From a virus (taxonomy: Duplodnaviria > Caudoviricetes): a DNA stretch of 64,000 nt. The notes beneath the pieces are model-generated. The model was not told where the DNA came from. It made no database searches and worked only from the letters and a program-made list of their open reading frames with translations. How positions within the stretch are numbered: position 1 is the stretch's first letter; every line of letters starts with the position of its first letter. Positions 20,354-51,467 of this stretch are shown one piece after another. The stretch spans positions 1 to 64,000 of IMG/VR virus record IMGVR_UViG_2636415849_000003; one strand, written 5' to 3'. The translations under genes and the position numbers were made by a program.

Positions 20354-20356
20354 GAT

Positions 20357-28965: not shown

Positions 28966-29693
28966 GCCGTCACCTCGCTGCTCATCTTCTCGCGCACCTG
29001 GTGCTGGCACCACAGGCCGGCAATCCACTCCACCCCCTTGGCGGTGAACTTGTAGTGGACGAAGGCGTGCGAGGTCTCGCCATGCTCAGCCGTGCCCGTC
29101 TTGGCTTCAAAGCGGCCGTTGTGCATATGCTCAGCACGCGGCGTCAGCGGCCCCTGTGGCGTGGTGCGGTACATCAGTCCGCGCTTCAGGAGGAAATCAG
29201 TGAATGCGTTCAGCTTGGCGCCGAGGAGCTTGCATACCTCACGAACACCCATGCTCCCAGTGCCTGGCTGCACGTAGCGATCGACAAATTCCGCCTTGGG
29301 CGCGACCAGCGCCAGCCGGGCCTCAGCCTCGATGCGGGCCTGCTCCGATGCCATGGCCAGCTTGAGAATGTCCATGCGCGTCATCTGTGCTGGCGCAGGC
29401 TGCTGGGCCTCCAGCTCCTGCCAGCGCTTGACCACCTTCATGCGCGCCACCGGGTCGTAGCCCAGCAGCAGAGTCAGGCTGGTGTCCTTGTCCAGCTCGT
29501 ATTGGGGATAGCTCTGCTCGTTCTCGCCCACGTAAGTGCTTGAAAAACAAACAGAACGCAATTCTGCGTTTTGCTGAAGCGCGTCCATCATGCTGCGGAT
29601 GTCGCGCATCACGTCGGCATGGCGCTTGCCCGTCAGCTCCGCAATGTCGCGGCTGCTCATGGTCAGGGCCGTGGGGGTGGTGATGGCGTTCAT
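28962..29693 (-). CDS. Rha-family / KilA-C antirepressor-like protein
   Basis: TMSSRDIAELTGKRHADVMRDIR (Rha-like) and APKAEFVDRY...FTAKGVEWI (ANT/KilA-C-like). Confidence 0.85.
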   Translation of the reverse strand: MNAITTPTALTMSSRDIAELTGKRHADVMRDIRSMMDALQQNAELRSVCFSSTYVGENEQSYPQYELDKDTSLTLLLGYDPVARMKVVKRWQELEAQQPAPAQMTRMDILKLAMASEQARIEAEARLALVAPKAEFVDRYVQPGTGSMGVREVCKLLGAKLNAFTDFLLKRGLMYRTTPQGPLTPRAEHMHNGRFEAKTGTAEHGETSHAFVHYKFTAKGVEWIAGLWCQHQVREKMSSEVTA

Positions 29694-30154
29694 TGAGCGC
29701 CTCCTCGGATGGACTGCAGCAACTCGGCCGTGCACTTCATCAGCGCCAACAGCAGAGGCTCAAGAGCGCGGCGGTCGTCTGCGCAAAAGTGGCCGTCCTG
29801 AGCTCGGGGAGAGCCTTCTGCCAGGGACTTGCTGGCAGTGCTGACCAGCTCCATAAACAGGCGAATGGAGTCAGAGGGGCTACGGTCCTCCATCTGGAAG
29901 TCCATAGGCACCTGCCCGACGAGATGGGCTAAAGCAAAGACCGCGCGGCGGGCCTGCGCCAGCACGATGATTTCCATCACAACACCAAATGAGGGCGGCG
30001 CCGCTTCATGGTCAGGGTTGATGCCGTTGGCCAGGGTATTGCCGTTCAGGCCGGCAATTTCTGCCAGCGCGCGAATGCCGCCTGGGTACTCCTTAGCGTC
30101 GGCCTGGAGCGCCAGAAACAGAGCGCGATGGGTTTGCTTAATGGTTCTACGCAT
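29690..30154 (-). CDS. CII-like regulatory protein
   Basis: YPGGIRALA...GNTLANGINP HTH; position after cro. Confidence 0.75.
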   Translation of the reverse strand: MRRTIKQTHRALFLALQADAKEYPGGIRALAEIAGLNGNTLANGINPDHEAAPPSFGVVMEIIVLAQARRAVFALAHLVGQVPMDFQMEDRSPSDSIRLFMELVSTASKSLAEGSPRAQDGHFCADDRRALEPLLLALMKCTAELLQSIRGGAQ

Positions 30155-30316
30155 AGCGAATGCCTCGTGAGATTCGCCTACCGCTGATGCGGCAGAGGTT
30201 GGACACTGGCTGCATGAAAACGAAAACAGGCCAGAAGAGAGGAAAAGGTGCCCGCCGCACCCTGGGCTATGCTGGGAGCTCCTACACAACCAGCGCCAGA
30301 GAGGGCGAACGACAAA

Positions 30317-30781
30317 ATGGACTGGACAGCTATCGGAGGCATAACTGCTTCAATCTCCGCTGCTCGCGATATCGCCAAGGGATTGAGTGCATCCCGCGAT
30401 GCCTCCCTCATCAACGAAAAGACCTCGGCCCTGCTGGAGCAATTGCTCAAGGCCCAGGAGGGACTTCTCGCTCACAACACCGCTCTTTTGCAGCTCCAGG
30501 ACGAGCATTTCAAAGCCAGCGAGAAACTGCGAAAACTGGAAGAAGCCGCTCGCGAGCGTGGTCGTTACTCGCTCATCGAACTCACCCCCGGCAACTTCGC
30601 GTATCGAGTGAACATCACCCCAGAGCAAAGCAGGACCAGCGAGCCAGGAGCCGCGGAGCCGCTGCACCACCTGTGTCAGCCGTGCTTCGACAACGGGAGA
30701 AAGGTTGCACTGAACTATCGAAACCTCCACATCAGGGGCGAGGTCTGGACGTGCAGCGTCTGCCGCGCGGAGATCGACTGA
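30317..30781 (+). CDS. hypothetical coiled-coil / Zn-ribbon protein
   Basis: HLCQPCFD...WTCSVC; antisense insertion between cro and cII. Confidence 0.7.
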   Translation: MDWTAIGGITASISAARDIAKGLSASRDASLINEKTSALLEQLLKAQEGLLAHNTALLQLQDEHFKASEKLRKLEEAARERGRYSLIELTPGNFAYRVNITPEQSRTSEPGAAEPLHHLCQPCFDNGRKVALNYRNLHIRGEVWTCSVCRAEID

Positions 30782-30783
30782 CA

Positions 30784-31020
30784 TCACTCCACCTCCTTTG
30801 CAGAGGTGGATGGCTGGGCCAGCTCTTGGCTGCTTTGGGGTTGTGTGGTGGTGGCAGCCATAGCGCGGCGCTCGTCAGTGATCCACTGGTGGTCTCGCTC
30901 CACATGCGCAGAAATGCCGCGATCCTTCCAGTTCTGAACACGTTGAACAGAGAAGCCGAGGCGCTCCGCAAATTTGGATGCGCCGCCGAGCCAGGCAATG
31001 AGTTGAGCGTCTTGATGCAT
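30784..31020 (-). CDS. Cro-like repressor
   Basis: LGGASKFAERLGFSVQRVQNWKDRGI HTH; divergent from cI. Confidence 0.85.
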   Translation of the reverse strand: MHQDAQLIAWLGGASKFAERLGFSVQRVQNWKDRGISAHVERDHQWITDERRAMAATTTQPQSSQELAQPSTSAKEVE

Positions 31021-31083
31021 AAACAAATTACACATCACGTTTAAACAAAAGTCAAACAACGCGTTTAACAACGTTTTGTTTAG
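31021..31083. promoter_or_regulatory. OR operators and pR
   Basis: Imperfect palindromes TACACATCACGTTTA, CAAACAACGCGTTTA and ACAACGTTTTGTTTA; TTGACT-17-TGTAAT on the minus strand (31055-31027). Confidence 0.75.
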
Positions 31084-31102
31084 TAAACGGAAAATCAAGC
31101 CA

Positions 31103-31795
31103 ATGCACCCATCCCTCGAACGCCTCTACCAAGCCGCAATGCAAGTGCGCGGAATCAGTGGCCAATCTGCCGTTGCCCGCTTGCTCAATGAATCGCCCCA
31201 GACAGTGAAAAACTGGGAAACACGCGGCGTTTCACGGTCGGGCGCATTGACAGCCGAGGTCGCACTGGGTGTGCGTGCGGCTTGGCTACTGTCAGGCGAA
31301 GGGGAAATGATTTACGGCGGCGGTGCGCCCGTGCTGATTGAGGCCCACGCGCCTGCAAGCCCTGACGACTTGGTGCGAATCCCTTTGCTAGCCAATTGCG
31401 GCAGCATGGGCCCGGGCAATGATGTGCTGGACACCGATTACGTGGTGGGAGGCTTATCGCTGTCGGCTCACTGGATTAACCAGCAAATCAAGCCAACAAA
31501 CTTTCAAGAACTGAAGTTCATTCACGCCCATGGAGAAAGCATGTCACCCACTTTTAGCGATGGGGATGTACTACTCGTGGATGTTGGGTCCCGCGACCCA
31601 GCCAGCCATGAGGGCGTCTATGTGCTGGAAGTGCAGGGCAAGTCATACATCAAGCGCGTGCGTATGCGCATGGATGGCTCGCTTGAAGTCAGCTCAGACA
31701 ATGTGAACATCAAGACCGTTGACGTACTCAACGGCGACCATGAAGTGCAGGTCAAAGGCCGCGTTGTCTGGGCTTGGAATGGCCGCAAGCTGTAA
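31103..31795 (+). CDS. CI-like repressor (HTH plus S24 peptidase)
   Basis: HTH SPQTVKNWETRG, GESMSPT (catalytic Ser), YIKRV (catalytic Lys) and GRVVW. Confidence 0.92.
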   Translation: MHPSLERLYQAAMQVRGISGQSAVARLLNESPQTVKNWETRGVSRSGALTAEVALGVRAAWLLSGEGEMIYGGGAPVLIEAHAPASPDDLVRIPLLANCGSMGPGNDVLDTDYVVGGLSLSAHWINQQIKPTNFQELKFIHAHGESMSPTFSDGDVLLVDVGSRDPASHEGVYVLEVQGKSYIKRVRMRMDGSLEVSSDNVNIKTVDVLNGDHEVQVKGRVVWAWNGRKL

Positions 31796-31800
31796 GCGAA

Positions 31801-32559
31801 CTATGCGCTCTTTGGTAGTTTTGCGCAGCAAATAATAACCCGCCCCGTCGATGAGTAAACACGGGGCAGAAAGTCATCAAGGGACGCAAAACCCAGCGAC
31901 CGCAGCGCATCAAGGTTCATAACGCAAACGCCCCCTGAGCCGCCAATTGAAGAAGGCGCGCTGATGTGCACATCACCATTTCGTTCAGCAAGCCACACAT
32001 CCAGCACTGCGCCCGGATAGCAGCGATCCACGGTTTCCTCATCAACATCGGCAGCAATGATGAAGGCGTGACCATCACGAACAAAGCAGTCAACGCGTAA
32101 ACGCGGCGCGAGCATGGAATACCTCAGCCTGGGTGCGACCTTGTCTATATCGCTAGGCGGCTGCGAAAACCTCAGGCTCAGCGAGGCACTGAACTGAGGG
32201 CCTTCATCGAAAAGCATTCTTGTCACCCGTAGTGCAGCCGTTGTTACCGGTGGGTGGTAAATAGCATCGTTTTCGCACACGGCCCTCTTGTATCTGGCTG
32301 CTGACGCCTTGCACAGATACCCAATGTGATGCTCAACGCAGAGCACCTTCACAGCATTCCCGTCATGCGGATTTTCGGGTTCTGGCACAAGTGTTGCAGT
32401 CGCAAGGAAGAACTGCTCAAGTTCAGGCTCCCACGCAACGATTCTCTCCAGCGCTTGGGTGTGATAGCTGACACCCACAACTGACTCACCGTACCCCACC
32501 TGCTCAGGCCAATGCGGCACTCGAGCATTCGCCCTTCTTGATTTCTTCTTGATTTCCAT
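31801..32559 (-). CDS. HIRAN-domain protein
   Basis: VVGVSYH...LVPEPENPHDGNAVKV...HIGYL. Confidence 0.8.
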   Translation of the reverse strand: MEIKKKSRRANARVPHWPEQVGYGESVVGVSYHTQALERIVAWEPELEQFFLATATLVPEPENPHDGNAVKVLCVEHHIGYLCKASAARYKRAVCENDAIYHPPVTTAALRVTRMLFDEGPQFSASLSLRFSQPPSDIDKVAPRLRYSMLAPRLRVDCFVRDGHAFIIAADVDEETVDRCYPGAVLDVWLAERNGDVHISAPSSIGGSGGVCVMNLDALRSLGFASLDDFLPRVYSSTGRVIICCAKLPKSA

Positions 32560-32625
32560 GTCTCCCCTCCCGCACTGCCTGTGCTTGTTGTTTTTCTATT
32601 GTGCAGGCAACTCAATAGCAATTAT

Positions 32626-32682
32626 TTACACAACTTGTTTAAACAAACTGTTGACCAGAATATAAACGCAATGTTTAAATAC
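32626..32682 (+). promoter_or_regulatory. OL operators and pL
   Basis: TACACAACTTGTTTA, TAAACAAACTGTTGA and TAAACGCAATGTTTA (same family as the OR sites), around a TTGACC -35. Confidence 0.7.
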
Positions 32683-33325
32683 ATTCATCGCGAAACAACA
32701 AAGCAGCTCCCGATGGAGCGCAGCAGGAGTTGCAGACGCGATGGGTGCCAAGCGATCGAGCCGAGTGCCACGGGTCTTTAAAAAGCCAAGCACTCACCGT
32801 GAGCAATCGGGCACCAGCTCGCCAAAGAGCGAGATTCAAGGGGCAATTTGCTTGAGGGATCGCGTCACCAAGAGAAGCAAGACGCCAATCAAGCAGCCGC
32901 GCGCTGCGAAGGAGAACACATGCGAGATGAATAGGCCGGACGACCCGGCCCACCACTCAAAACACTCGCCACCCCTGGGCGATACCAGGGCCATCCGGCG
33001 TGACCACTCGAGCAGGTACGGCAGTTCAGGAATGGGCCTGGGCTGGCGGCAGTTAGGAACGCGGCGCTTGCGTCGTGGCGACAGTGGTCACACCAGATGG
33101 CTCTACCCCTTTGGTGTAAGACGAGCTCCTATTGATCGCCCGAAAAGCATCATGCAGAATTCGACGCCATCTACCTGTTACGCCGGGTCTGGGGTTAACT
33201 CCTCCCTCCCTTTCTGACCTCTTCCCCAGGCATGGCCCGAAAGGGTCACCGGCTCTTTATTCAAGCCCGCAGCAACCACTCGCGGGCTTTTTCTTTGCCC
33301 AAACCACCCTCCACAGGAGAAACCA

Positions 33326-34051
33326 ATGGAAATCAAGATCGCTTTGGATTTGCCCAGCATCATTGCCCAGGCTGTCAGTGCCGAACGCATCCAGCCCATC
33401 GTTGACAAAGCTGTCAGCGACGCGGTCAAAAGCGCCATTGACGATGCAACAGGCTACCGCAGCGCGTTCCGCACAGCGCTGAAAGATCAGCTTTCAACAG
33501 CAATGCCGCACGGACTGGCGCTGGATGATGTAGCCAAGTTCCAGAACATCCTGAATGGAGCCATCAACAAGCTGACTCAGGAGTGCAACGCCAGCGCTGT
33601 TCACACGGCAATCGAGAATGCTGTCAAAGAGGTGATGCCCGACGTGCCGGCTGTCATCAAAATGAGCGAGCTGCTCAAAGAGGCGCGCAGTGGACTGCAC
33701 AAGGAAGAACATGAAGCCTTCTACGCCTACTTTGAGCCAAACGAGTACAGCAGCGGCGGTGGCCTTCTGTTCTTGGACGAGGATGTGAACCCCGGCAGCA
33801 GCGGATATTCGGGCACCAGGCGAAGCCGCGAAGATCAAAAGTACAGCGCAAGCCTACGGCTGGCATTCAACGGTGAAGGCGAGGTGTACGCGCTACGCCT
33901 GGATGGCAAGGACGTCACACCGAAAAGCCGCCCAGACATCATTGGCCGCTTCGATTCAATTCTGATGGCCATGTACGTTGGCCGCACCCGCATCGAGGTG
34001 GACATGGATGACGACGACGTCGAAAACGCTGCCAGTGAGCAATGGGAATGA
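33326..34051 (+). CDS. hypothetical protein
   Basis: AGGAG RBS; 241 aa; first clear gene of the pL operon. Confidence 0.8.
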   Translation: MEIKIALDLPSIIAQAVSAERIQPIVDKAVSDAVKSAIDDATGYRSAFRTALKDQLSTAMPHGLALDDVAKFQNILNGAINKLTQECNASAVHTAIENAVKEVMPDVPAVIKMSELLKEARSGLHKEEHEAFYAYFEPNEYSSGGGLLFLDEDVNPGSSGYSGTRRSREDQKYSASLRLAFNGEGEVYALRLDGKDVTPKSRPDIIGRFDSILMAMYVGRTRIEVDMDDDDVENAASEQWE

Positions 34052-34179
34052 GGGCTACGGAATGGGCGCTCACCAGCCTCGGCCTGTTCTGCCTGGTCGG
34101 GGCGGTCGTAGTGATCGCACTCACGCCAGAAGCCTGGCCCCTCTGAGCATTCAGCTTTGATAGCTAAAAGGAGATCCTC

Positions 34180-34377
34180 ATGCTGAAGACGATTGTTGAC
34201 TCTCTGCTGGTCATCGTTGGCGCCCTACTTCTCGCAGCCTGGCTGTCCGCGCCCGATGCCCAAGCCGACGAACCCCAAAGCATCACACAGAGCCTGCGCG
34301 ACGAGTTCGCCTGTCCGGGCATGCATGCCGAGTGGCTGGACGACAAGACTGTGCAATGCCTGAAAGAGCTGCCGTGA
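34180..34377 (+). CDS. small hypothetical exported/membrane protein
   Basis: AAGGAG RBS, hydrophobic N-terminus, two Cys. Confidence 0.65.
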   Translation: MLKTIVDSLLVIVGALLLAAWLSAPDAQADEPQSITQSLRDEFACPGMHAEWLDDKTVQCLKELP

Positions 34378-34441
34378 CTGCAGCGCCCACCTCCACCCAA
34401 TCCGCCACCGCACCGGTGGCTTTCTCTTTTCTGGAGTCCTG

Positions 34442-35377
34442 ATGTTCAAGAACATGATCATTTACCGCTATGCCGAAAGCTGGCAAAGCGATCTGCAGGC
34501 GCTGGAAGATGCGCTGCAGAAGACAGTCTTCGAGGAATGCGGCGCCACGCAGGAGCGCTCCATGGGCTGGGTGCCGCCGCGCGGCGAGCCCCATGGCCCG
34601 ATGGTCGAATCCGTGGCAGGTCAATGGGTGATGCGTTTCATGACCGAGGCCAAGGTGCTGCCGGCCAGCGTGCTCAATCGCAGGGTCAACGAGAAGGCCG
34701 ATCACATCGAAAAGACCGATGGCCGCAAGCCCGGCAAGAAGGAAAAGCGTGACCTCAAGGACGAGGCCAAGCTGGATCTGCTGCCCATGGCCTTCACCAA
34801 GCAAGGCAGCATGTGGGTCTGGATCGACCCGCAGGCGCGCACCCTGGTGCTTGATACCAGTGCCCAGAGCCGCGCCGACGAGGTGGTAACGCTGCTGGTC
34901 GAGGGCCTAACCGGCTTTGCCCTGGCCCTGCTGGACACACAAACCAGCCCGCAGGCCGCCATGGCGCATTGGCTGATGACCCAGGAACCGCCCGCCGGAT
35001 TCAGCGCCGACCGCGAAACGGAGCTGAAAGCATGCGACGAGTCCAAGGCCGTGGTGCGCTACGCCCGCCACCCGCTGGACATTGATGAGGTACGCAAGCA
35101 CATCGAGCAAGGAAAGCTGCCCACCAAGCTGGCCATGACCTGGGACGACCGGGTGAGTTTCGTGCTGACCGAAGGCTTGCAGATCAAGAACATCGCGCTG
35201 CTGGATGCGGTCATGGACGGCAACAGCAAGGATGACAGCGGCTTTGATACCGATGTAGCCATTGCCACCGGCGAGCTGTCGCGCCTGATTCCGGATCTGA
35301 TCGAAGCGCTGGGCGGCGAAGGCCGAACCGCGCTGGGCGACCTGCCCGCCTCGCTGGCTACCAGCGCCAGCAACTGA
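34442..35377 (+). CDS. rdgC: recombination-associated protein RdgC
   Basis: MFKNMIIYR, SMGWVPP, KVLPASV, LLPMAF, KLAMTWDDRVSFVL and LIEALGGE. Confidence 0.93.
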   Translation: MFKNMIIYRYAESWQSDLQALEDALQKTVFEECGATQERSMGWVPPRGEPHGPMVESVAGQWVMRFMTEAKVLPASVLNRRVNEKADHIEKTDGRKPGKKEKRDLKDEAKLDLLPMAFTKQGSMWVWIDPQARTLVLDTSAQSRADEVVTLLVEGLTGFALALLDTQTSPQAAMAHWLMTQEPPAGFSADRETELKACDESKAVVRYARHPLDIDEVRKHIEQGKLPTKLAMTWDDRVSFVLTEGLQIKNIALLDAVMDGNSKDDSGFDTDVAIATGELSRLIPDLIEALGGEGRTALGDLPASLATSASN

Positions 35378-35476
35378 GCACCTATTCATAGATTTGCATG
35401 AATCGGGCCGCGCACCCACATCAATGAATCGTCTGCCCGCCACTGCGTGGGCTTTTTTCGTCCAAAGGAGAACCCC

Positions 35477-36064
35477 GTGCAGATTCACACACAGAACGTC
35501 ATCATCCTTCCACCGGCCGCAACTGCTGATGCCATGGCAAGCATGGAGCGACTCATGCAAAGCATTGGCCGCGCCGAAGCCCCTGCGGTCGCAGCTCAGC
35601 CAGGCTGCAAGCCCCAGATTGGCGACTACTGGCCCAACCAAGGCGGCTTCTACGCCGGCGACATGCGCAGCGATGACGGAACGATCTATGGACTGATCGT
35701 TGCCGATTGCGGCGACTCCAAAGACGCCGGCTCTGCCAAGTGGGGCCCGGATGGCGAACGAGACCTGTCCCACTGGGATGGCCTGGACAACACTCGCCGC
35801 CTGGGCAACGAATGCCCTGCCGCAAAGCTGGCGACCGCGCACTCAGCTGACGAGCACAAGGATTTCTACCTCCCAGCCCGCCGCGAACTGCAGCTGGCAG
35901 CCGCCAATGTGCCCCACCTCTTTGGTGATGAGAGCTGGTACTGGAGTAGCACTCACTACGGCCAGAGCACCGCCTGGGCCGTCGATTTTGAGTACGGAAA
36001 CACGGACATCTTCAACCGGAACGACGAGTTCCGAGTTCGTCCCGTCCGCAGATTCATCTACTGA
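35477..36064 (+). CDS. DGR target protein 1 (DUF1566/CLec-like)
   Basis: AAGGAG RBS and GTG 35477; DFYLPARRELQ, WYWSST, AWAVDF..G and RVRPVRRF; carries VR1. Confidence 0.9.
   Translation: MQIHTQNVIILPPAATADAMASMERLMQSIGRAEAPAVAAQPGCKPQIGDYWPNQGGFYAGDMRSDDGTIYGLIVADCGDSKDAGSAKWGPDGERDLSHWDGLDNTRRLGNECPAAKLATAHSADEHKDFYLPARRELQLAAANVPHLFGDESWYWSSTHYGQSTAWAVDFEYGNTDIFNRNDEFRVRPVRRFIY
35973..36051 (+). repeat. DGR variable repeat VR1
   Basis: 79 nt colinear with the TR; 6 mismatches, all at TR adenines. Confidence 0.95.
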
Positions 36065-36106
36065 TCCCTTCAACCCTTCCTTCTCAAACCAACCACGGAG
36101 CCATCA

Positions 36107-36508
36107 ATGAGCACCACACCCGCAATCAACCAGCCCTGGCCCGAGCAGGGCGGAATCTTCATCGGCAGCCGCCTCATCGACGGCCTGGTACACCACGTCG
36201 TCATCCCTGGAGGGATTGAGTTCGACCATGCCGACATTCCATTCAGCCGAGTGGAGCAGGTCGTGGCCGAAGGCGATGAGCTGAACGGCTTCAGCGACTG
36301 GCGCGCCCCGGATAAGGAAGATCTGATGCTGGCCTATATCAATAGCCGCGAGCTCTTCGATACCGGCGACTGGTACTGGTCACGAACTCCGGATGGCGAG
36401 CACTGGGCCTGGGCCGTCGATTGTGAGTGCGGGCACACGGACGACAACTGCCGGCGCAGCGAGTTCCGAGTTCGTCCCGTCCGCAGCTTTCCCGCTTCAG
36501 CGATTTAA
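36107..36508 (+). CDS. DGR target protein 2 (DUF1566/CLec-like)
   Basis: GGAG RBS; GFSDWRAP..EDL, WYWSRT, AWAVD...G and RVRPVRSF; carries VR2. Confidence 0.9.
   Translation: MSTTPAINQPWPEQGGIFIGSRLIDGLVHHVVIPGGIEFDHADIPFSRVEQVVAEGDELNGFSDWRAPDKEDLMLAYINSRELFDTGDWYWSRTPDGEHWAWAVDCECGHTDDNCRRSEFRVRPVRSFPASAI
36408..36486 (+). repeat. DGR variable repeat VR2
   Basis: 79 nt colinear with the TR; 12 mismatches, 11 at TR adenines and one T>G. Confidence 0.95.
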
Positions 36509-36514
36509 CACTTT

Positions 36515-36529
36515 GCGGGCGTAGCCCGC
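36515..36529. other. DGR target-recognition hairpin (putative)
   Basis: GCGGGC-GTA-GCCCGC, a perfect 6-bp GC stem with a GNA loop, 28 nt after VR2. Confidence 0.7.
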
Positions 36530-36536
36530 CTTTGGC

Positions 36537-36998
36537 ATGGCGCTCCACACTGACACCGAGATCTACAAATCCACATACGACTTGAGCAAGCTGGTCACCC
36601 AACTGGTGGCCAATATGCCTAGGAACTTCAAGGCTGACTTTGGCGCCGAGTTGCGGCGCCGGTGCATGACGCTGGTCATGCGCACCTACGAAGCCAACAC
36701 GAATGCGGACAAGGCCGCGATCCTGCAGCGCATGCGCATGGAGATTGAGACCGTCAATCTCTCGCTGCGCCTGGCTGTGGATCTGCGCCTGATTTCGGTC
36801 AATCAGTACAGCCGCGCCATCGCCATCACTGACAGCATCGGCAAGCAAGCCACCGGCTGGCAGAAGTACTCGGAACGCGCGCAAGCTGCCGGCTTGTCAA
36901 GGCAGACCGGCCACAGCGCCTTGGAATCTGGTCGAGCCGCTGGGCCACAAGCCCACCGAAAGGCGCATCAGGAATATCAGCAGAAGCATCTGCAGTGA
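36537..36998 (+). CDS. avd: Avd-like accessory variability determinant (four-helix bundle)
   Basis: IYKSTYDL, MPRNFK..G, LRLAVDLRLIS..QY and IGKQATGW; lies between the VRs and the TR. Confidence 0.88.
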   Translation: MALHTDTEIYKSTYDLSKLVTQLVANMPRNFKADFGAELRRRCMTLVMRTYEANTNADKAAILQRMRMEIETVNLSLRLAVDLRLISVNQYSRAIAITDSIGKQATGWQKYSERAQAAGLSRQTGHSALESGRAAGPQAHRKAHQEYQQKHLQ

Positions 36999-37054
36999 TT
37001 CCGCGCAGTTTGCCTGCTGAATGCTCGGCAGGCCGACGTGATCAGCTCGGCACA

Positions 37055-37133
37055 CCTGGGCCGTCGATTTTGAGAACGGAAACACGAACAACAACAACCG
37101 GAACAACGAGTTCCGAGTTCGTCCCGTCCGCAG
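37055..37133 (+). ncRNA. DGR template repeat (TR)
   Basis: Intergenic copy between avd and RT with 8 in-register AAC codons and 23 adenines. Confidence 0.93.
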
Positions 37134-37151
37134 ACTCCACCGAGACACACT

Positions 37152-38252
37152 ATGGATACTGGCTATTCGCTCGAGAAGCTGGTGCAGGCTTACTTTGACT
37201 GCCGCCGGCACAAACGCACTACGGCCAGCGCACTGCTTTTCGAGCAGGCTCTGGAGCACAACCTCATGCAACTGCATGGAGAGCTGCAGGATGGCAGCTA
37301 CCGGCCCGGTCCATCCATCTGCTTTGCGATCAGCCGACCACGGCCGCGCGAAGTATGGGCCGCCCAATTTAGAGACCGAATCGTGCACCATCTGCTCTAC
37401 AACCAGATTGCCGATCGGTTCCACCGCCGCTTTATCGCGGATTCGTGCGCAGGCATCCCGGGGCGCGGCACGCTGTATGCAGCCCAGCGCCTGGAGGCCA
37501 AGGTGCGCAGCCAAACCCAGAACTGGTCAGTGCCCGGGCATTACCTGAAGATCGATCTGGCCAATTTCTTTGTTTCCATCGACAAGCGGGTGGTCTGGCC
37601 CCTGTTGGTCCAGCAGATCCCGGAGCGCTGGTGGCGGGGCTTAGCCAAGGTCATTCTTTTCAACGACCCGCGCATTGACTTTGAGCAGCGCGGCAGCGTT
37701 GAGACGCTGGCAGCAGTACCCGCTCACAAGCGCCTTGCCAATGCGAAGCCCTACTGCGGGCTACCCATCGGCAACCTGAGCAGCCAGTTCTTTGCCAATG
37801 TACTGCTCAATGAGCTGGACCAGCATGCCAAGCACAGCATCAAGGCCAGGCACTACACCCGCTATGTCGATGACATGGTGCTGCTGCACGAGTCACCCCA
37901 GTGGCTCAATGGGGCTCTGGACAGCATCAATGCATTCCTTCCCAGCCTGGGTCTGCAGCTGAATCCACGCAAGACCGTGCTGCAGCCGATCAGCCGCGGC
38001 ATCGATTACGTGGGCCAGACGATCCACCACTGGCGGCGAACAACACGCCCACGAACGCTACAGCAAGCGCTCGCACGCATCGAGGTCATGCCAGCCGATG
38101 AGGTCTACGCCAGCGGCAACAGCTACCTCGGTCTGGTGCGCCAGTCCAGCGCCAGCCACAACGAACAGGCGCTCATCTGCAGAGCGCTACTTAGACGCGG
38201 GCATGCCATTGAGGGATTGCACCTCAGTAAGGCATTTCGCAAAAACCACTGA
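37152..38252 (+). CDS. DGR reverse transcriptase
   Basis: FRDRIVHH, YLKIDLANFFVSID, GLPIGNLSSQFFAN, RYVDD and GIDYVG; 366 aa with no maturase or endonuclease extension. Confidence 0.95.
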   Translation: MDTGYSLEKLVQAYFDCRRHKRTTASALLFEQALEHNLMQLHGELQDGSYRPGPSICFAISRPRPREVWAAQFRDRIVHHLLYNQIADRFHRRFIADSCAGIPGRGTLYAAQRLEAKVRSQTQNWSVPGHYLKIDLANFFVSIDKRVVWPLLVQQIPERWWRGLAKVILFNDPRIDFEQRGSVETLAAVPAHKRLANAKPYCGLPIGNLSSQFFANVLLNELDQHAKHSIKARHYTRYVDDMVLLHESPQWLNGALDSINAFLPSLGLQLNPRKTVLQPISRGIDYVGQTIHHWRRTTRPRTLQQALARIEVMPADEVYASGNSYLGLVRQSSASHNEQALICRALLRRGHAIEGLHLSKAFRKNH

Positions 38253-38298
38253 CCCCAGCCCGCAGCCGCGGGCTTTTCTCATTCTGGGAGCCACCTAT

Positions 38299-39537
38299 AT
38301 GCAAGACAAGAACTTCATCAAGCTGACCGACCAAGACGCAGCCCTGCTCGAGCAAGGAGCATCCATGCTTGAAGGCCTGGAGAACGATGAGCGCAATCGC
38401 GGGAATTGCAGCACAGCCGAAGGCGCAGGATGCAGCGCCCATGCAGTCCGCCGCCTGGCCTCAGCCCTTCTGGCGCATGAGCGAGAAATTGACCAGTGCC
38501 TGCACCAGATTCAGGAGCCAGCCGCAGCAGAACAATCCGCATGGCATGCAGGCCTGGACGAAGGCCGGGCACAGGCAGCGCCTGCAGCCGTGGCTGTGCC
38601 TGATGGCTGGAAGCTGGTGCCGACTGAGCCTACGCCCCAGATGTGTCACGTCGGACGCTACGGAGGGGACAAGGACGCCCCAGCGTATGGGGAAAAACCA
38701 GTTGAAGGAGAGACCGCTTGGCCATTTGTTGCAGATCACACTGCAAAGCAGATTTACTGCGCCATGCTCGCTGCTGCTCCAGCGCTTGCCGCCACCCCGG
38801 CATGTGACACGCCCAACTACTGCCGCAGCGTGCAGCGTTGCACCGCCATGGATGGGCAGCGGGCAGCAGCCGCGCCAGTGGTGCTGCCAGAGCCTATGGC
38901 GTGGATGGCGACTCCTGTGATGCAGTCAGGTCGCGGTACAACGACGGTGTTTTGCTCCGACAAGCGGATGGCGGACCAGTGGGACTACGGCGGACACCCG
39001 GAGTACGGCCGCATGCTGGTGACACGGCTCTTCACAGAGCAGCAGCTGCGCGCCCTGCTGGCTACTGCACCACTGCAGCCAGTGGAAGTCCCCACGAAGG
39101 ATCAAGCGACATGGTGCAGCTACATCGCCGGGATGATTGGGTGCTATCTCAATGAGCCAGACGACAGCCCCCGCGTCAAAGCCATTGCAGGAATCATTGA
39201 GCGCCGCCTGTGGGCACTGCCGTCCGCAGCTACTGCGACCGGACTTCCCGCGCACGCGGTTGCAGACGAGGTGCACTGTGTCTGCGGTGCGTCTTGGCTG
39301 CGCCACGGCGTCAACAACTACGAGATGACCGACACGCCACGGAAGGCGCAGGCTGACGCGCGGGATGCGCTGATACCCGCCAAGCCGGTTCACCCCAAAG
39401 GGATGACCAGCATCAATGCGCGGCTTTCGTTCAACATGGGCTGGATGGCATGCGAGCGCCATCACGGCATCCGCGCAGAAGACGTTGAGCAGGCCGTAGC
39501 CACCGACGCCGCTATCGCGGCAGCAAAGGGGGAGTGA
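38299..39537 (+). CDS. mosaic early-region protein (Ead/Ea22-like linkers)
   Basis: GGGAG RBS and ATG 38299; VPDGWKLVPTEPTPQM, AMLAAAP and PEPMAWM modules. Confidence 0.7.
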   Translation: MQDKNFIKLTDQDAALLEQGASMLEGLENDERNRGNCSTAEGAGCSAHAVRRLASALLAHEREIDQCLHQIQEPAAAEQSAWHAGLDEGRAQAAPAAVAVPDGWKLVPTEPTPQMCHVGRYGGDKDAPAYGEKPVEGETAWPFVADHTAKQIYCAMLAAAPALAATPACDTPNYCRSVQRCTAMDGQRAAAAPVVLPEPMAWMATPVMQSGRGTTTVFCSDKRMADQWDYGGHPEYGRMLVTRLFTEQQLRALLATAPLQPVEVPTKDQATWCSYIAGMIGCYLNEPDDSPRVKAIAGIIERRLWALPSAATATGLPAHAVADEVHCVCGASWLRHGVNNYEMTDTPRKAQADARDALIPAKPVHPKGMTSINARLSFNMGWMACERHHGIRAEDVEQAVATDAAIAAAKGE

Positions 39538-39540
39538 GAC

Positions 39541-39804
39541 ATGGCACAAGCAAAAACTGAATTCCGTCTGCTTATGTCGCCTCTGTCGCGCACGATCTAT
39601 GCGGGGCGCGTGAAAGACATTGGCGGAAGCACGGCCCTGTCCGTTGGTGTGCGACATGACGTGACCAATGATTTTCTGAGTTGCGTGATGCAGCTTGGCG
39701 AGGCAATGGGAGGGAAGTTCGCCATCAACAACGAAGAAGGCCAATGGGAAGTGACAGTCACCAAGCGCGCCGCCCAGGCAGCGCAAGGGGGTGAGCATGG
39801 CTGA
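39541..39804 (+). CDS. hypothetical protein
   Basis: GGGGAG RBS; SPLSRTIYAG...RHDVTNDF. Confidence 0.7.
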   Translation: MAQAKTEFRLLMSPLSRTIYAGRVKDIGGSTALSVGVRHDVTNDFLSCVMQLGEAMGGKFAINNEEGQWEVTVTKRAAQAAQGGEHG

Positions 39805-40054
39805 GAAGGCGTATTTCTACCGCAGCTTTGATGGTATGTGCTGGCCCGCGCCTAGCGAGCGCTTGGGCGAGATTGAATGGCGCGCCAGATATGCGGCTCC
39901 GACTCAGCCCGACCTGCTGATGATGGCCTCTGTGCTTGCCGCCTACCAAGAGCTGATCGTAATGCCAGCCAAGAAACGGGACAGGATCATCAAAGAGCTG
40001 CGCAAAGGCCCTGGCATCGTTCTGGCGGCAGCCAAGGAAGGAACGCAGGGATGA
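39797..40054 (+). CDS. hypothetical protein
   Basis: Overlapping, coupled ORF. Confidence 0.6.
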   Translation: MAEKAYFYRSFDGMCWPAPSERLGEIEWRARYAAPTQPDLLMMASVLAAYQELIVMPAKKRDRIIKELRKGPGIVLAAAKEGTQG

Positions 40055-40155
40055 GCAAGCGAGCCCGCGACCGAGGCGACAAGCGCGACAGATGGCGCGA
40101 ACCTATCAACCACCCAGAGCCCCGCTGATGCGGGGTTTTGCTTTTGGGAGACCTC

Positions 40156-40398
40156 ATGGCAATCAGCGCCAGCACTGTGGGCCTGCCAGAAGACAAGGCC
40201 TACATAGCCCACCACTTCAACTGCCCTACCTGCTGCGCTGCCGGGCTATCCGGCGGGCAGCAGGAGCGGTGCACTGACGGACTGCTGCTTTGGGATGCCT
40301 ACAACCAGGCCGCACGCCTTCTGCTCGAACCTTTGAAACCCAACCGCCGGCCCGCAAGGGCCATTTTTAATGGAGGTCGCCATGGATCAAACTGGTGA
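40156..40398 (+). CDS. small Cys/His hypothetical protein
   Basis: GGGAG RBS; HHFNCPTC...RC.DG..LW motif. Confidence 0.6.
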   Translation: MAISASTVGLPEDKAYIAHHFNCPTCCAAGLSGGQQERCTDGLLLWDAYNQAARLLLEPLKPNRRPARAIFNGGRHGSNW

Positions 40399-40597
40399 AT
40401 TCCTGTTGCCACAAGAAATTAAGCGAATGGCGTCAGCTGGAAAGCTGGACCAGCAAGAAGCGTTTTTGAAGAAAGAGGGAATCCCTCATAAACGCCTGGG
40501 TAGGCGTATTCTTGTCTCTCGCGCTCATGCCCGGGCGTGGCTGACTGGAGTGGTTTTCACGCCTTCGCGCGGGATTAACTTAGGAGCTGTCAGATGA
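40382..40597 (+). CDS. putative excisionase (DUF4224-like)
   Basis: Small and basic; FLLPQEI...Q..FLKKEGIPH; ATGA-coupled to the integrase. Confidence 0.75.
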   Translation: MDQTGEFLLPQEIKRMASAGKLDQQEAFLKKEGIPHKRLGRRILVSRAHARAWLTGVVFTPSRGINLGAVR

Positions 40598-41625
40598 CTG
40601 GAGCCTATCCACGACTGCGCACCAGGACGCGCCGCCGTAAAAGCGGCAAGGTCGTGGTGTATTACTTCTATGACGCATCAACAGAAGGAAACGGGGAGAT
40701 TCCTCTTGGCACCGACTTCGATAAAGCAATCGCCCAATGGAAAGAGATTACTGAGAACGGCACTCACAGCGCGCGCATAACTGGCACGCTCGAGGAGGCT
40801 TTCTCAGGCTGGGAATCGAAAGTCTTGCCAACATACAAGAGCGAAGAGACGAAAAAGGGCTACGCCAAGAATCTCAGGATGATGCGCCCAGTCTTTGCCG
40901 AGGCCACTTGGGACCAGGTGAGCCTGCCTGTAATCAAGGGCTACCTGACGAAGCGCACGGCGAAGACCCAGGGCAATCGGGAGATGGCCTTACTCTCGGT
41001 CATCTGGAACTGGGCGCGCGGCGAAGGCCTCACCTCCCTACCCTGGCCAGCGGCCGGGATGGAGCGCAGCAAGTGGAAGAACAAAGAAAAGGCGCGAAAG
41101 ATCAAGGTTCGAGACGATGTGTTTGCGGCTATCTATGCCGAGGCGGCCCAGCACATCAAGGATTGCATGGACCTCGGATCCGCCACGGGCATGCGCCTGA
41201 CTGACTGCATCACGGTCCTGATGCCGCGCGGGAACCTGCTGACACTGGAGGCCAGCAAGACCGGTAAGGAGGCCGAGTGGGACTTGAACCTGTCCGCAGT
41301 TCTGCCCGACCTGGTGCGCAGGCGCAAGGCTCTTGGAGCCGATCATCTGATGCTGCTTTCCACTGCAGACGGGCAGCCGGTGTCGCCCCAGGCGCTTCGC
41401 TATGGATGGGACAAAGCCCGGAGCACGGCCGCAGAGAAGGCCATCGAGCGCGGCGACGATGAGCTGGCCGAAGCGATCAAACAGCTCTACCTGCGGGACA
41501 TGCGAAAGCGCGCTGCACAGAAAGCGGGCAGCCTGGAAGAGGCATCCAAGCTGCTGCAGCACAGCGACGAACGCCTGACCGAGCGCCATTACGGCGGCGT
41601 CCGGAGGCTGAAGCCAGTGGGCTAA
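40594..41625 (+). CDS. int: tyrosine integrase
   Basis: TGMR..D, KTG, RDMRKRA and LLQH...TERHY catalytic residues; adjacent to the att repeat. Confidence 0.93.
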   Translation: MTGAYPRLRTRTRRRKSGKVVVYYFYDASTEGNGEIPLGTDFDKAIAQWKEITENGTHSARITGTLEEAFSGWESKVLPTYKSEETKKGYAKNLRMMRPVFAEATWDQVSLPVIKGYLTKRTAKTQGNREMALLSVIWNWARGEGLTSLPWPAAGMERSKWKNKEKARKIKVRDDVFAAIYAEAAQHIKDCMDLGSATGMRLTDCITVLMPRGNLLTLEASKTGKEAEWDLNLSAVLPDLVRRRKALGADHLMLLSTADGQPVSPQALRYGWDKARSTAAEKAIERGDDELAEAIKQLYLRDMRKRAAQKAGSLEEASKLLQHSDERLTERHYGGVRRLKPVG

Positions 41626-41721
41626 AAGTGTTCCGGTTTTGCCTTCTCTACCTATAGAGAAGTGCGCCCAAAAAACCGGAACATATCGGCCCGCAGGCCG
41701 CATGAATCCTTAATTCTTCAC

Positions 41722-41780
41722 GGGACTCAAAATCCCCCGCCGCAAGGCGTGCCGGTTCGATTCCGGCCCCGGGCACCACA
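41722..41780 (+). repeat. att core copy 2 (tRNA-Leu 3' fragment)
   Basis: Identical to 975-1033; lacks the tRNA 5' part. Confidence 0.95.
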
Positions 41781-41784
41781 TACT

Positions 41785-41820
41785 AAAAGCCGTTAAGTCT
41801 CAATGACTTAGCGGCTTTTT
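41785..41820 (+). terminator. intrinsic terminator after the att copy
   Basis: AAAAGCCGTTAAGTC-TCAAT-GACTTAGCGGCTTTT hairpin. Confidence 0.8.
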
Positions 41821-41953: not shown

Positions 41954-41969
41954 CTGTATTTATGTACAG
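41954..41969. promoter_or_regulatory. LexA (SOS) box of umuDC
   Basis: CTGT-ATTTATGT-ACAG. Confidence 0.9.
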
Positions 41970-42402
41970 TCATCGACTCTTGAGCGGCATGCCCGTCCAA
42001 CTCACTGCCTCCCCAGTTGCTTTGCCGCTGGCAGATTGCAGCGTGCGTGCAGGCTTTCCCTCACCAGCCGAGGACTTCTCAGGCAAGCGGCTAGATATTG
42101 CCGAGCTGCTGGTAGAGCATCCACAGGCCACATTCCTGCTGCGCGTGGCAGGGCCATCCATGCGCGAGTACGGCATTGATGATGGCGACATCATCGTGGT
42201 CGACCGGGCACTGCGCGCACGCCACGGCAGCATCGTCGTGGCCGTCCTTGACAATGACTTCACCGTGAAGGTCCTGCACAACGCTGGTGGCTGCTTCAAG
42301 CTCAGGGCCGGCAACCCCACCTATCCCGACATCGTCCCCAAAGAGAACCAAGAGCTGGAAATCTGGGGCGTGGTCAAGTCCTGCATCAAACGCTTTGCAT
42401 GA
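41962..42402 (+). CDS. umuD: DNA polymerase V subunit UmuD
   Basis: AGFPSPA cleavage site, GPSM, FTVK and IWGVV; start may instead be ATG 41989. Confidence 0.92.
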   Translation: MYSHRLLSGMPVQLTASPVALPLADCSVRAGFPSPAEDFSGKRLDIAELLVEHPQATFLLRVAGPSMREYGIDDGDIIVVDRALRARHGSIVVAVLDNDFTVKVLHNAGGCFKLRAGNPTYPDIVPKENQELEIWGVVKSCIKRFA

Positions 42403-42408
42403 GCATGT

Positions 42409-43707
42409 ATGTTCGCGCTCATCGACGGCAACAACTTCTATGTCAGCTGCGAGCGGGCTTTCAGGCCTGCCCTTGAGGGCATCCCTGTCGTCGTCCTGAG
42501 CAATAACGACGGCTGCGCCATCTCACGCTCCGACGAGGCCAAGGCCCTGGGCGTGAAGATGGGGCAGCCTTTTTTTCAGTTGCGCGACCTGGTCGAGCAC
42601 AAGGGGCTTGTCTGCCTCTCACCAAACTTTGAGCTGTACGGCGACATGAGCGACCGCATGATGTCGCTGGCTGCCGGCCTGGGCCCCGTCCAGGAAATCT
42701 ACAGCATCGATGAGTCATTCATTGGGGATCTGGACGGCGTGCGGGATCTCACGCGCCGCGCCTTTGCCATCCGCACACGCATCCTGAAATGGACAGGCAT
42801 CCCTACATGCGTGGGCCTGGCTCCCACTAAGACCTTGGCCAAGCTCTGCAACCATGTCGCCAAGGACTCGGAGCGCAAGCCTGGCAGCTATCCTGCTGAG
42901 CTGCAGCGGGTCTGCAACTGGGCAGAGCTGTCCGAACAGCAACGCACCGACATTCTCGGCCGCACCGCCGCCGGCGAGGTCTGGGGCGTGGGCCGGCGCA
43001 TCTCTGCCCAACTGGCTGAGCAAGGCGTGCTGACTGCGCTTGACCTGGCCAGGCTGCCCGCCCATGCCGCGCGCGATGGCTGGAGCGTGGTGCTGGAGCG
43101 CACCGTGCGCGAGCTGCAGGGCGTGAGCTGCATGACCTTGGAGCTTGCCCCAGCCGCCAAGAAGCAGATTGCATGCACCCGCAGCTTTGGACACCCCATC
43201 ACCACCTTGCCGCCCCTTATCGAGGCCGTGAGCGAATTTGCAACCAGAGCCGCCGAGAAGCTGCGCGCCAGTGGGTTGCGCGCCGGCGCCCTGCATGTTT
43301 TCGTGCACACGTCGCCATTCAGGCCCGGTCGTAGGTTCTACGAAACGGCCGTAATTCAACTCCAGCCGCCCTCATCAGACACCAAGGCTCTAGTCAACGC
43401 GGCCGTGCGCGGCCTGCGATCGATCTACCAGCCTGGCTACCAACTATCCAAGGCCGGCGTCATGCTGCAAGACCTGTGCCCTGCAGAAGTACAGCAAGGC
43501 GATCTGCTTTTTCAGGAACCCAGCCGCGACCAAAGCAAGCTGATGGAAGCCATGGACCGCGTCAATGCGCGCTTTGGCAAGGGCACCGTGCATGTGGCGA
43601 GCACCGGAGTACCTGAGCAGGATGAAAGCGGCTGGCGCATGCGCCAAGAGCGCCGCACGCCGCGCTACACCACGAAACTGGATGACATTCCCATTGCCAG
43701 GGCCTAA
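42409..43707 (+). CDS. umuC: DNA polymerase V subunit UmuC (Y-family)
   Basis: [31 protein letters not shown] and W.MRQE..TPRYTT. Confidence 0.95.
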
Positions 43708-43746
43708 GAAAGATGACTCCACATGCAGTGTTACAAAAAACAACAA

Positions 43747-43803
43747 ACACTAAATGTAGTGCCAAGTGGCACATTTGTACCCCCTAAACACTAGATGTAG
43801 TGT
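43747..43803. promoter_or_regulatory. tandem NrdR-box-like palindromes
   Basis: ACACTAAATGTAGTGC (43747-43762) and ACACTAGATGTAGTGT (43788-43803), 41 bp apart; they fit acaCwAtATaTwGtgt as recalled. Confidence 0.7.
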
Positions 43804-43893
43804 CCATCCCATGAAAACACCGATCACAGAAGCGTCAGGAAGTCAAGAAGAAGTATTAAAAATAAGTTTACTGAGCTAAACTAGCCCCAACAC

Positions 43894-43961
43894 ACCCGCC
43901 ACACGTCCTAGCTTCGGCTAGGGTCTGCCTTAAAAAGCAGCGTGCAAAAGGCGGGTTTTTC
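43894..43961 (+). ncRNA. structured RNA upstream of abiF (candidate RNA antitoxin and terminator)
   Basis: Outer stem ACCCGCC/GGCGGGT, inner stem CACG/CGTG, hairpins CCTAGC-TTCG-GCTAGG and CTGC-N8-GCAG, then a U-run. Confidence 0.7.
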
Positions 43962-43980
43962 ATGCCCGAAAGTTATTAGT

Positions 43981-44868
43981 GTGTCCCTAACCACTTTCAC
44001 TAAATCGGCGTCAAATCCCAGCACGCTGCTTACCAAGCTTGAAGGCCAAGGCCTTCAAGTTGCGGATCGGTCGACGGCGCTCAACTATCTCCAATATGTT
44101 GGTGGTTACCGACTCAAGGGATACTGGCACCACCTCATCGACAAAGCAACCAATCAATTCCCACAAGGCTACAACTTTACCGATATAGCTAATCGTTGTG
44201 AGTTTGATCGAGAACTACGAGCTGCGACGATTGAAGCCATAGACAGGCTAGAGGTTGCAATTCGATCCAGCATTGCTAACTATTTGAGTCAGAAGCATGG
44301 CCCACATTGGTTCTTAAAGCCATCCGCATTCAAACCCACAAAAGCATGGGGTCTAGGGCAACTTCTTCAGAAAATTGAGAGTGAAGTAGGCCGCGGAAAG
44401 AACAATTTCGTGAAGCACTACTTCAGCAAGCACGATGACCCGTACCTTCCTCCAAGCTGGTCTATTAGTGAGTGCGTGAGCTTTGGCCTATGGTCCAGAA
44501 CCTACGAAATCCTGCGCGATACCAATGACAAAAAGGCAATCGCCATGAAGTTCAACATTGATCAACCCAATGTGTTCGCGTCTTGGATTCACGCGATAAC
44601 AGTTCTTCGAAATGTTGTAGCACATCACGGCCAACTTCTCGGCAATACTCAAAATGTCAGCCCTTGCGAGTACAAGAGACTGGGGATCATTTTCAAGGAC
44701 AACAAGCAGTTCTTTGCCCTAGCCACTGTTATTCAGTACATGCTCACCCAGACATCACTGCCCAATCGCTGGAAAGCAGATCTGAAAGCCATATTCGACA
44801 AATATCCAACGGTCAACATCTTGGAGGTTGGGTTTCCACAGAAGTGGGAATCCCAGCCTGGCTGGTGA
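43981..44868 (+). CDS. Abi_2 (AbiD/AbiF) family HEPN protein
   Basis: VGGYRLKGY, FDRELR...I..LEV.IR, PPSW...E..SFG and HEPN RxxxxH in LRNVVAHH; lower GC than the flanks; GTG 43981 is the probable start. Confidence 0.88.
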   Translation: MSLTTFTKSASNPSTLLTKLEGQGLQVADRSTALNYLQYVGGYRLKGYWHHLIDKATNQFPQGYNFTDIANRCEFDRELRAATIEAIDRLEVAIRSSIANYLSQKHGPHWFLKPSAFKPTKAWGLGQLLQKIESEVGRGKNNFVKHYFSKHDDPYLPPSWSISECVSFGLWSRTYEILRDTNDKKAIAMKFNIDQPNVFASWIHAITVLRNVVAHHGQLLGNTQNVSPCEYKRLGIIFKDNKQFFALATVIQYMLTQTSLPNRWKADLKAIFDKYPTVNILEVGFPQKWESQPGW

Positions 44869-51465: not shown

Positions 51466-51467
51466 GG

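Follow-up and report, generated by a model that had tools for sequence, protein, structure and literature searches.

Diversity-generating retroelements (DGRs) of phages have been explained almost wholly by tail-fiber tropism switching. In the element of Bordetella phage BPP-1 (mtd-avd-TR-brt), information flows adenine-specifically from a template repeat (TR) to a variable repeat (VR) at the 3′ end of a lectin-fold open reading frame (ORF), and the one target, the tail-fiber tip Mtd, is encoded in the virion module. According to the accessible text of Roux et al. (2021), viral targets are mostly tail proteins, and 71% of targets are unannotated outside the VR (PMC8144416). Targets with a DUF1566 domain account for 14% of DGRs in the corresponding part of Wu et al. 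(2018), who describe “about half” of them as short and without other motifs (PMC5758913). Here, we describe a DGR at positions 35477–38252 of a 64,000-nucleotide stretch of Caudoviricetes DNA (positions 1–64,000 of the 80,148-base IMG/VR record IMGVR_UViG_2636415849_000003; hereafter the window). It is built from the same parts as the BPP-1 element, shows the same adenine-specific TR-to-VR flow, and has its VRs at the 3′ ends of lectin-fold ORFs; unlike BPP-1, it has two targets, none of them in the tail module, and these belong to Pfam Lcl_C/DUF1566 rather than being Mtd. We favor, at a probability of about 0.6, the reading that this DGR, functional now or until very recently, forms an accessory cassette within the repressor-to-integrase (early-left, recombination/lysogeny) arm of a prophage from a Comamonas-like host, its signal-less lectin-fold targets serving as variable binders outside the virion.

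The DGR of phage Magia (MT701587) lies in the same arm, where cro, the repressor, a lectin-fold target, further genes, a second target, Avd, TR, RT (reverse transcriptase), and integrase follow one another. The Magia record annotates a “lectin fold domain protein, possible DGR target,” and the genome announcement of this Burkholderia phage (Microbiol Resour Announc 2021; PMC7883833), which classes it with the myophages, speaks of targets in “relatively short reading frames.” By tblastn, the RT of the window is ~59% identical to that of the annotated Magia DGR and Avd is ~39% identical; the mismatches of the Magia VRs fall on TR adenines in 15/15, 8/8, and 11/11 cases. Magia differs in having three VRs, one of them remote beside the repressor, and RecT/nuclease neighbors instead of rdgC. 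Its third VR (L004, 8488–8578, 11/11 at adenines) lies in CPT_Magia_046, which was deposited as hypothetical and is not marked as a target. The Pseudomonas D3-like phage phPA-G (PP083311) likewise carries a CI-like repressor, ORFs of 163 and 194 aa, Avd, TR, and RT, with adenine mismatches of 15/15 and 14/14 and with both targets recorded as “hypothetical.” Homologs are present in PMG1, PAN70, D3, and Medea1, the last two of which keep targets without an RT. A target far from the structural module is also known from Quimbyvirus, where the accessible text of Benler et al. (2021, Microbiome 9:78; PMC8008677) describes the second target as non-structural, nested among defense-related genes, and conflict-related; like the targets of the window it stands apart from the structural genes, among methyltransferases and a nuclease, but Quimbyvirus also has a structural target, infects Bacteroidetes, and differs in phage type and target family. 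Neither the element nor its layout is new, and non-structural targets have been proposed before.

A repeat search of the region returned a single family with three 83-nt copies, starting at 35973, 36408, and 37055, and no fourth copy occurs in the entire 80,148-base record. The copy in the spacer between avd and RT is the TR (37055–37133, plus strand; homology to VR1 spans 37053–37134), and the other two are VR1 (35973–36051, plus strand) inside target1 and VR2 (36408–36486, plus strand) inside target2. As a preliminary description of this DNA had claimed, both VRs align to the TR without gaps and differ from it at adenine sites, in 6/6 mismatches for VR1 and 11/12 for VR2. The TR contains 23 A in 79 nt, and the probability that at least 17 of 18 mismatches, both VRs pooled, would fall on A is 1.0e-8. 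The differences between TR and VRs lie at TR adenines in 17/18 cases, as expected of a DGR. The single non-adenine difference is a T>G change (TR 37070/VR2 36423), which turns the Phe of a family-conserved “AVDFE” into Cys in target2; contigs of three sequencing runs read T at this site. Eight in-frame AAC codons are present in the TR, and both VRs share its codon frame. Conversion of AAC to NNC makes 15 residues and no stop codon reachable, and our recalculation of the variant number given earlier as about 15^8 yields 2.56e9 per target.

The VR ends 13 nt before the stop codon of target1 and 22 nt before that of target2. At the 3′ end of the repeats, where an IMH/IMH* asymmetry and a GC-rich hairpin past the VR are typical of DGRs, a 26-nt segment is common to the TR and the VRs and invariant, and in the window the repeats part directly after CGCAG(A). 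A GC-rich hairpin with a 6-bp stem and a 3-nt loop (36515–36529, plus strand; folding centroid) lies 29 nt past VR2, and no hairpin follows VR1.

The ORF and family scans bear out the gene order target1-target2-avd-TR-RT, with all genes on the plus strand. The accessory variability determinant, avd (36537–36998), matches PF22296 bAvd at 51.2 bits (cut-off 40) and phrog_3206 at 1.2e-33; against NCBIfam DivGenRetAVD it scores 57.7 bits, under the equivalog cut-off of 80, and a sequence search found no solved-structure relative. The RT (37152–38252, 366 aa) matches RVT_1 at 2.8e-16 and phrog_1423 at 5.8e-104. GLPIGNLSSQ and YVDD are typical motifs of DGR RTs, and both, as reported before, are present (residues 203 and 238). 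Its closest solved relative is 8ub7_A (328-aa chain, 7.9e-33), which we take to be the BPP-1 bRT, whereas retron, group II, and Drt RTs match at 6e-8 or weaker. No DGR RT model in NCBIfam fits; its group II, retron, and Drt models matched the RT below threshold. By its sequence, the RT belongs to the DGR clade. Because 17/18 mismatches lie at adenines, Avd scores above its Pfam cut-off, and the RT matches 8ub7_A, the cassette is almost certainly a genuine DGR.

Target1 (35477–36064, plus strand, 195 aa) starts with GTG, a start supported by homologs of ~195 aa aligned at 100% coverage, and target2 (36107–36508, plus strand) encodes 133 aa. The DUF1566 affiliation proposed for both holds for target2, which scores 37.2 bits against PF07603 Lcl_C (cut-off 34.9), and falls just short for target1 at 34.0 bits; the match covers residues 53–126 of target2 and 130–201 of the 205-aa ORF of target1. 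Their best PHROG match is phrog_4245 (5e-27 for target1), a 583-position profile to whose C-terminal end alone the targets align. Pfam, PHROG, and NCBIfam scans returned no further family in either target, and no Mtd or fiber domain. The targets had been described as essentially bare CLec/DUF1566-like domains, and this is true of target2, a single domain; target1 carries in addition a variable N-terminal extension of ~44 residues. In the AF2 model of target1 (pLDDT 76) this extension is of low confidence over residues 1–42, and residues 1–44 are predicted to be disordered, followed by a confident lectin-like domain over residues 45–195. With this model, the top Foldseek match is 8q4e_A, the Legionella Lcl C-terminal domain (E 8e-4, TM 0.60 on the target), and weak C-type lectin matches rank after it. 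The profiles of both target families likewise match only 8q4e among solved structures (2.6e-5 for the target2 family).

Database searches at E <= 1e-3 found 268 relatives of each target. Nearly all of the 120 listed for target1 are 187–221 aa long, those of target2 measure ~130–141 aa, and the named sources are Comamonas, Delftia, Acidovorax, and Achromobacter. Restricting the search to longer proteins gave one weak match, of 1282 aa. We aligned 121 sequences per family (the window protein and 120 homologs). By a crude hydrophobicity and motif test, signal- or TM-like hydrophobic segments, lipoboxes, and Tat motifs are absent from all of them, in line with the earlier statement that signal peptides and transmembrane helices are lacking. 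The median number of Cys residues in the target2 family is 0. These features fit soluble, unexported proteins. Both targets belong, as far as their sequences tell, to the short DUF1566-only class with a C-terminal VR. In the category “d” of Wu et al. (DUF1566/CLec2), the exemplar is Legionella LdtA, whose VR lies in a DUF1566-type domain as in the window; LdtA is a surface lipoprotein, whereas the window targets are phage-borne, and a surface lipoprotein of the LdtA kind is rejected here given the absence, by the same crude test, of a hydrophobic leader, lipobox, and Tat motif from all 242 aligned sequences.

Traces of retrohoming are visible among the relatives. Four IMG/VR relatives (L007–L010) share the two-target layout and have RTs 79–93% identical to that of the window. 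Mismatches fall on TR adenines, VR by VR, in 11/11 and 12/12 (L007), 10/10 and 11/11 (L008), 7/8 and 7/8 (L009), and 9/10 and 10/10 (L010). The TR and both VRs are identical across L008, L018 (a locus in a Comamonas genome), and L071, which were counted once. The L008/L018 element has a cassette ~90% identical to that of the window and a 100% identical TR, and yet VR1 differs from that of the window at 11 positions, all 11 at adenines, and VR2 at 13, 12 of them at adenines. Over 25 related loci and 53 TR-VR pairs, 613/621 mismatches were at adenines, a count that leans to adenines since the extension scoring penalized other mismatches more. The preliminary description had held that an absence of adenine-biased VR variation from reads or homologous prophages would mark the element as inactive; among the relatives such variation is present, both in L008/L018 and across the 25 loci.

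Changes of the TR at bases other than adenine are mirrored in both VRs at 10/11 sites in L009, 6/7 in L010, 7/8 in L026, 9/9 in L039, and 4/5 in L022. The unmirrored site in L009, L010, L026, and L022 (and in L020, 1/2) is the last position, 79, where the TR reads ..CGCAT and the VRs ..CGCAG; the TR of L039 ends in ..CGCAA, an adenine base outside its 9 counted sites. In all, six relatives have a TR ending in ..CGCAT or ..CGCAA with both VRs ending in ..CGCAG, and because the change at the TR end is absent from both VRs, position 79 would be the 3′ limit of information transfer. VR2 of L022 also lacks one further TR change, at an adenine of the L022 TR, and in L019 a novel TR adenine is mutated in VR1. 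In the target1 alignment, the eight AAC positions have an entropy of 2.9–3.6 bits with 12–15 residue types each; entropy averages 0.15 bits over the 13 VR codons that have no A in positions 1–2 and 0.88 bits over the domain body. The same TR with different VRs, the concerted TR/VR changes, and the hypervariability restricted to AAC codons together suggest a DGR that is functional or was so very recently.

A search of public sequencing runs returned none with half or more of the sequence words; runs X1, X3, X18, and X19 were examined as assembled contigs, which break at repeats. X18 and X19 are small transcriptomic libraries from a single cultured organism. Their contigs, at window positions 35490–38263, cover target1, target2, and RT of a ~93% identical relative, with avd not covered.

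The cassette behaves as a unit among related prophages. Its approximate insertion bounds are 35372–38251 (plus strand), drawn from the break in blastn homology to DGR-less relatives, which ends at 35371/35372; in L056, homology resumes at 38252 with 97% identity over 270 nt. Contigs of X18 and X19 also join 35371 straight to 38252, with a side of 35 nt, which is a weak hint alone. Of 59 rdgC-related proviral loci, 57 lack target1, target2, avd, and RT within 8 kb; a complete cassette is present only in L071 (the L008 contig), and L082 has two targets. Cassette-free L060 shares with the window an integrase 99%, a “xis” 100%, and an rdgC 93% identical, and cassette-free L066 an integrase 95% identical. 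By these comparisons, the cassette is a discrete, self-contained accessory module.

In 15 DGR-less relatives the slot holds other cargo, including orphan C5 or N6/N4 DNA methylases in six loci and a Lar-like restriction-alleviation protein in one, in a Pfam scan that covered 66 of the 98 called ORFs (the shortest and some repeated ORFs being left aside); the other named cargo comprises a GGDEF protein, lipocalins, an LprI-like protein, and an RRM protein. The cassette is flanked by two similar GC-rich terminator-like hairpins (35435–35452 and 38257–38274), and pieces of the left hairpin (35361–35457) recur downstream of rdgC in DGR-less relatives; these hairpins may mark recombination points of the slot. 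Targets are kept without a full RT in L021 (which retains an RT fragment), L031, L032, L033, Medea1, and D3. In Medea1 (L017), two DUF1566 genes stand in tandem and contain VR-like repeats of 114 nt (6468–6581 and 7156–7269) that are 82% alike. Methylases follow these genes, a nearby TR copy is absent, and the 12.6-kb stretch examined lacks an RT. D3 (L016) has one target homolog (5719–6396), two ORFs past the repressor, and no RT annotated within 6 kb.

A tblastn search with target1 returned 20 phage records (15 Pseudomonas, 4 Burkholderia, and 1 Halomonas), with identities of 30–44% for the Pseudomonas D3-like and related phages. We also surveyed genomes with a target2 profile, taking one genome per species, and obtained 32 loci, every one of them from a Burkholderiales-type genome or bin. 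A full RT lies downstream in 21 of them, four have none despite at least 7.5 kb of sequence (L021 with a fragment), and seven are too short. The placement, described as unusual at the outset, is not: the same layout is found in Magia, in Pseudomonas D3-like phages, and in these 21/32 Burkholderiales loci. PHROG annotation of the flanks of nine loci took in 142 of the 223 ORFs called there, with those of the cassette and the shortest ones set aside. In 9/9 a CI-like repressor lies upstream on the same strand, and in 9/9 there are recombination genes (RecT, RecE, Erf, exonuclease, SSB, RdgC); most also have methylases and excisionase/integrase. Among these 142 flank ORFs there are no tail or capsid genes, and one small terminase subunit lies at the far end of L046. 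Many relatives (L027, L028, L029, L044, L046, and L049) have a third, remote target 1.6–6.7 kb upstream of the cassette targets, at about 4000–4560 in L027, L028, and L029 and just after the CI-like repressor in L046 and L049. A search of the open literature, with subscription journals and supplements outside it, found no paper testing the function of early-arm targets; PMC11661182 and the preprint 10.1101/2024.10.15.618418 do not treat this DGR clade, and the accessible part of the Medea1 paper (PMC10175458) contains nothing on DUF1566 proteins or virion proteomics.

PHROG and Pfam scans place the DGR within the ends of a lambdoid siphovirus prophage. Its length of ~40.8 kb follows from a direct repeat of at least 59 nt (exact 40-mers), which pairs attL at 975–1033, in the 3′ part of a tRNA-Leu(CAA) gene (947–1031, ARAGORN), with attR at 41722–41780, just past the integrase. 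On the minus strand lie the lysis genes (3370–4125), the tail fiber, J-like protein, and tape measure (4594–14294), the head, portal, and terminase genes (18124–23845), and the Ant, CII-like, and Cro-like genes (28962–31098). The cassette-bearing arm, on the plus strand, begins with a CI-like repressor (31076–31795; phrog_4 3.8e-35, phrog_6201 2.4e-19) and continues to rdgC (34442–35377; PF04381 3.2e-106, phrog_724 6e-80), directly upstream of the cassette, and to a tyrosine integrase at the right prophage end (40594–41625; phrog_1 2.8e-16). The cassette had been placed between rdgC and xis/int; rdgC and the integrase are confirmed by their families, and the 75-aa “xis” ORF (40370–40597) matched none. 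The nearest tail gene ends at 15899 on the opposite strand, 19,578 nt from target1, in agreement with the distance of more than 19 kb noted before. No VR copy lies in the tail genes in a search of the whole 80,148-base record, and the window contains neither a target in the virion module nor a tail-attachment domain on a target, the features that define tropism switching of the BPP-1 type.

A scan for sigma-70-like promoters over 30500–41800 found none on the plus strand and two on the minus strand, against 3.1 expected. Since no plus-strand promoter was located, the earlier placement of the cassette downstream of pL is an assumption. Terminator-like hairpins on the plus strand lie upstream of rdgC (34404–34420), between rdgC and target1, where a T run follows (35435–35452), directly after the RT stop codon (38257–38274), and at 40349. 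Between a phrog_2600 gene and rdgC, a 65-aa ORF (34180–34377) without a family match has, by eye, a signal-like hydrophobic N-terminus. Beyond attR, positions 41962–44868 carry umuD-like (Peptidase_S24), umuC-like (IMS), and Abi_2 abortive-infection-like genes. Farther on, at 45439–64000 on the minus strand, lies a second, separate phage-like structural module with genes for lysozyme, a tail protein, a baseplate-hub-like protein, a tape measure, cement, capsid, a lambda-family portal, and a gpA terminase nuclease, so that the 80-kb “provirus” record seems to hold two elements. This second module (45.4–64 kb) was ruled out as the home of a virion target, as it is outside attR and has no VR copy.

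By analogy with the DGR family, whose sequence traces are seen here, the avd-RT spacer would be transcribed, and RT and Avd would copy the 79-nt TR into cDNA with misincorporation opposite adenines. This cDNA would then replace the homologous 3′ ends of the two adjacent paralogous targets and re-randomize eight NNC codons per gene, which would give ~2.6e9 variants per target. That the targets are not virion parts is quite probable, given the position of their genes, the independence from tail type (the same cassette arm occurs in the siphovirus of the window and in Magia, called a myophage), the fact that near-identical prophages differ in having or lacking the cassette, and the missing anchor and export signals of the targets. 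From the anti-restriction neighbors and slot cargo we infer that the targets may be variable binders used in phage-host or phage-phage conflict, whether inside an infected or lysogenic cell or once lysis has freed them. A specifically anti-defense role is a tentative proposal, as is expression early in infection; the preliminary description, which put forward both, reasoned as Benler et al. did for the second Quimbyvirus target. We hold with similar reserve the possibility of an adaptive repertoire of antibody-like intracellular binders, directed against host defense proteins or, in the lysogen, against rival phages, and traded in an anti-restriction hotspot.

Several observations weigh against the favored reading of an intact accessory DGR with non-virion targets. 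The T>G change suggests that VR2 has perhaps not been re-homed recently, and assembled contigs do not resolve VR variation within a population, so that the support for activity is comparative. No promoter was found for the cassette, a terminator-like hairpin stands ahead of it, and the X18/X19 RNA-library contigs do not demonstrate transcription, its level, its strand, or transcript ends. On the protein side, the test for export was a crude Kyte-Doolittle and regular-expression count and not a trained signal-peptide predictor, the AF2 model of target2 (pLDDT 51) is too poor for a structure search, and the 44-residue extension of target1 could be a docking peptide. Finally, 48 of the 66 slot ORFs have no Pfam match, which leaves the guilt-by-association argument thin.

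The targets might instead be made in the lysogen, where, as hypervariable proteins, they would sense or block other phages and mobile elements that enter the cell (superinfection exclusion or defense) rather than act as early counter-defense. DGR-based immunity has been proposed in the accessible text of PMC10053308, and in D3, Magia (gene 57), L046, and L049 a target lies directly behind the repressor on the same strand, a position associated with lysogen exclusion; a weak hint in the same direction is that target1, target2, and RT of a relative are represented among the RNA-library contigs of a cultured organism, although these contigs show neither transcription level nor strand. In the window itself, however, 3.7 kb and two terminator-like hairpins separate the targets from the repressor, and no effector domain is attached to the targets or lies beside them. 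We consider this prophage-side role unlikely.

An ordinary tropism DGR would have virion-associated receptor-binding or decoration proteins as targets, docking through the target1 extension or by oligomerization, and would shift host range as in BPP-1. The sole experimentally studied phage DGR does diversify a receptor-binding protein, according to the accessible text of PMC5758913 and PMC8144416, and head-decoration and “tentaclin” targets indicate that virion targets need not be classical fibers. The 44-residue extension of target1 and the restriction of both matches to the C-terminal end of phrog_4245 could be read in the same way. Against this, every relative examined has the target genes in the repressor-to-integrase arm and none has them beside tail genes, one cassette type serves a siphovirus and a myophage, and the cassette is missing from prophages with near-identical integrase and rdgC. 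Moreover, outside the AAC positions no part of target1 is less conserved than its N-terminal extension (mean 2.33 bits), and long homologs amount to one weak match. Virion-borne targets of this kind are, in our judgment, rather improbable. Lastly, it is very hard to see the element as an inactive relic with a past retrohoming signature and targets that are now fixed proteins, as might be suggested by the targets without RT in L021 (fragment), L031, L032, L033, and Medea1 and by the one non-adenine mismatch of VR2, given that all four ORFs are full length against their homologs, the RT catalytic motifs are intact, and a ~90%-identical relative, whose VR differences lie at adenines, has a TR that matches at 100% identity.

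The favored reading of non-virion variable binders concerns a DGR clade of temperate Comamonas, Achromobacter, Burkholderia, and Pseudomonas phages that has no virion target and instead has small, signal-less lectin-fold proteins encoded among recombination and lysogeny genes. To this clade the window adds an intact example with prophage ends, cassette bounds, and close relatives with and without the cassette. The interest lies in the role of phage DGR targets outside the tail rather than in the window being exceptional. This natural presence/absence set is suited to asking what the targets bind, and Magia and the D3-like phages are cultivable relatives. If the targets do form an adaptive repertoire of binders, this would be the first hypervariable counter-defense or exclusion system of a virus.

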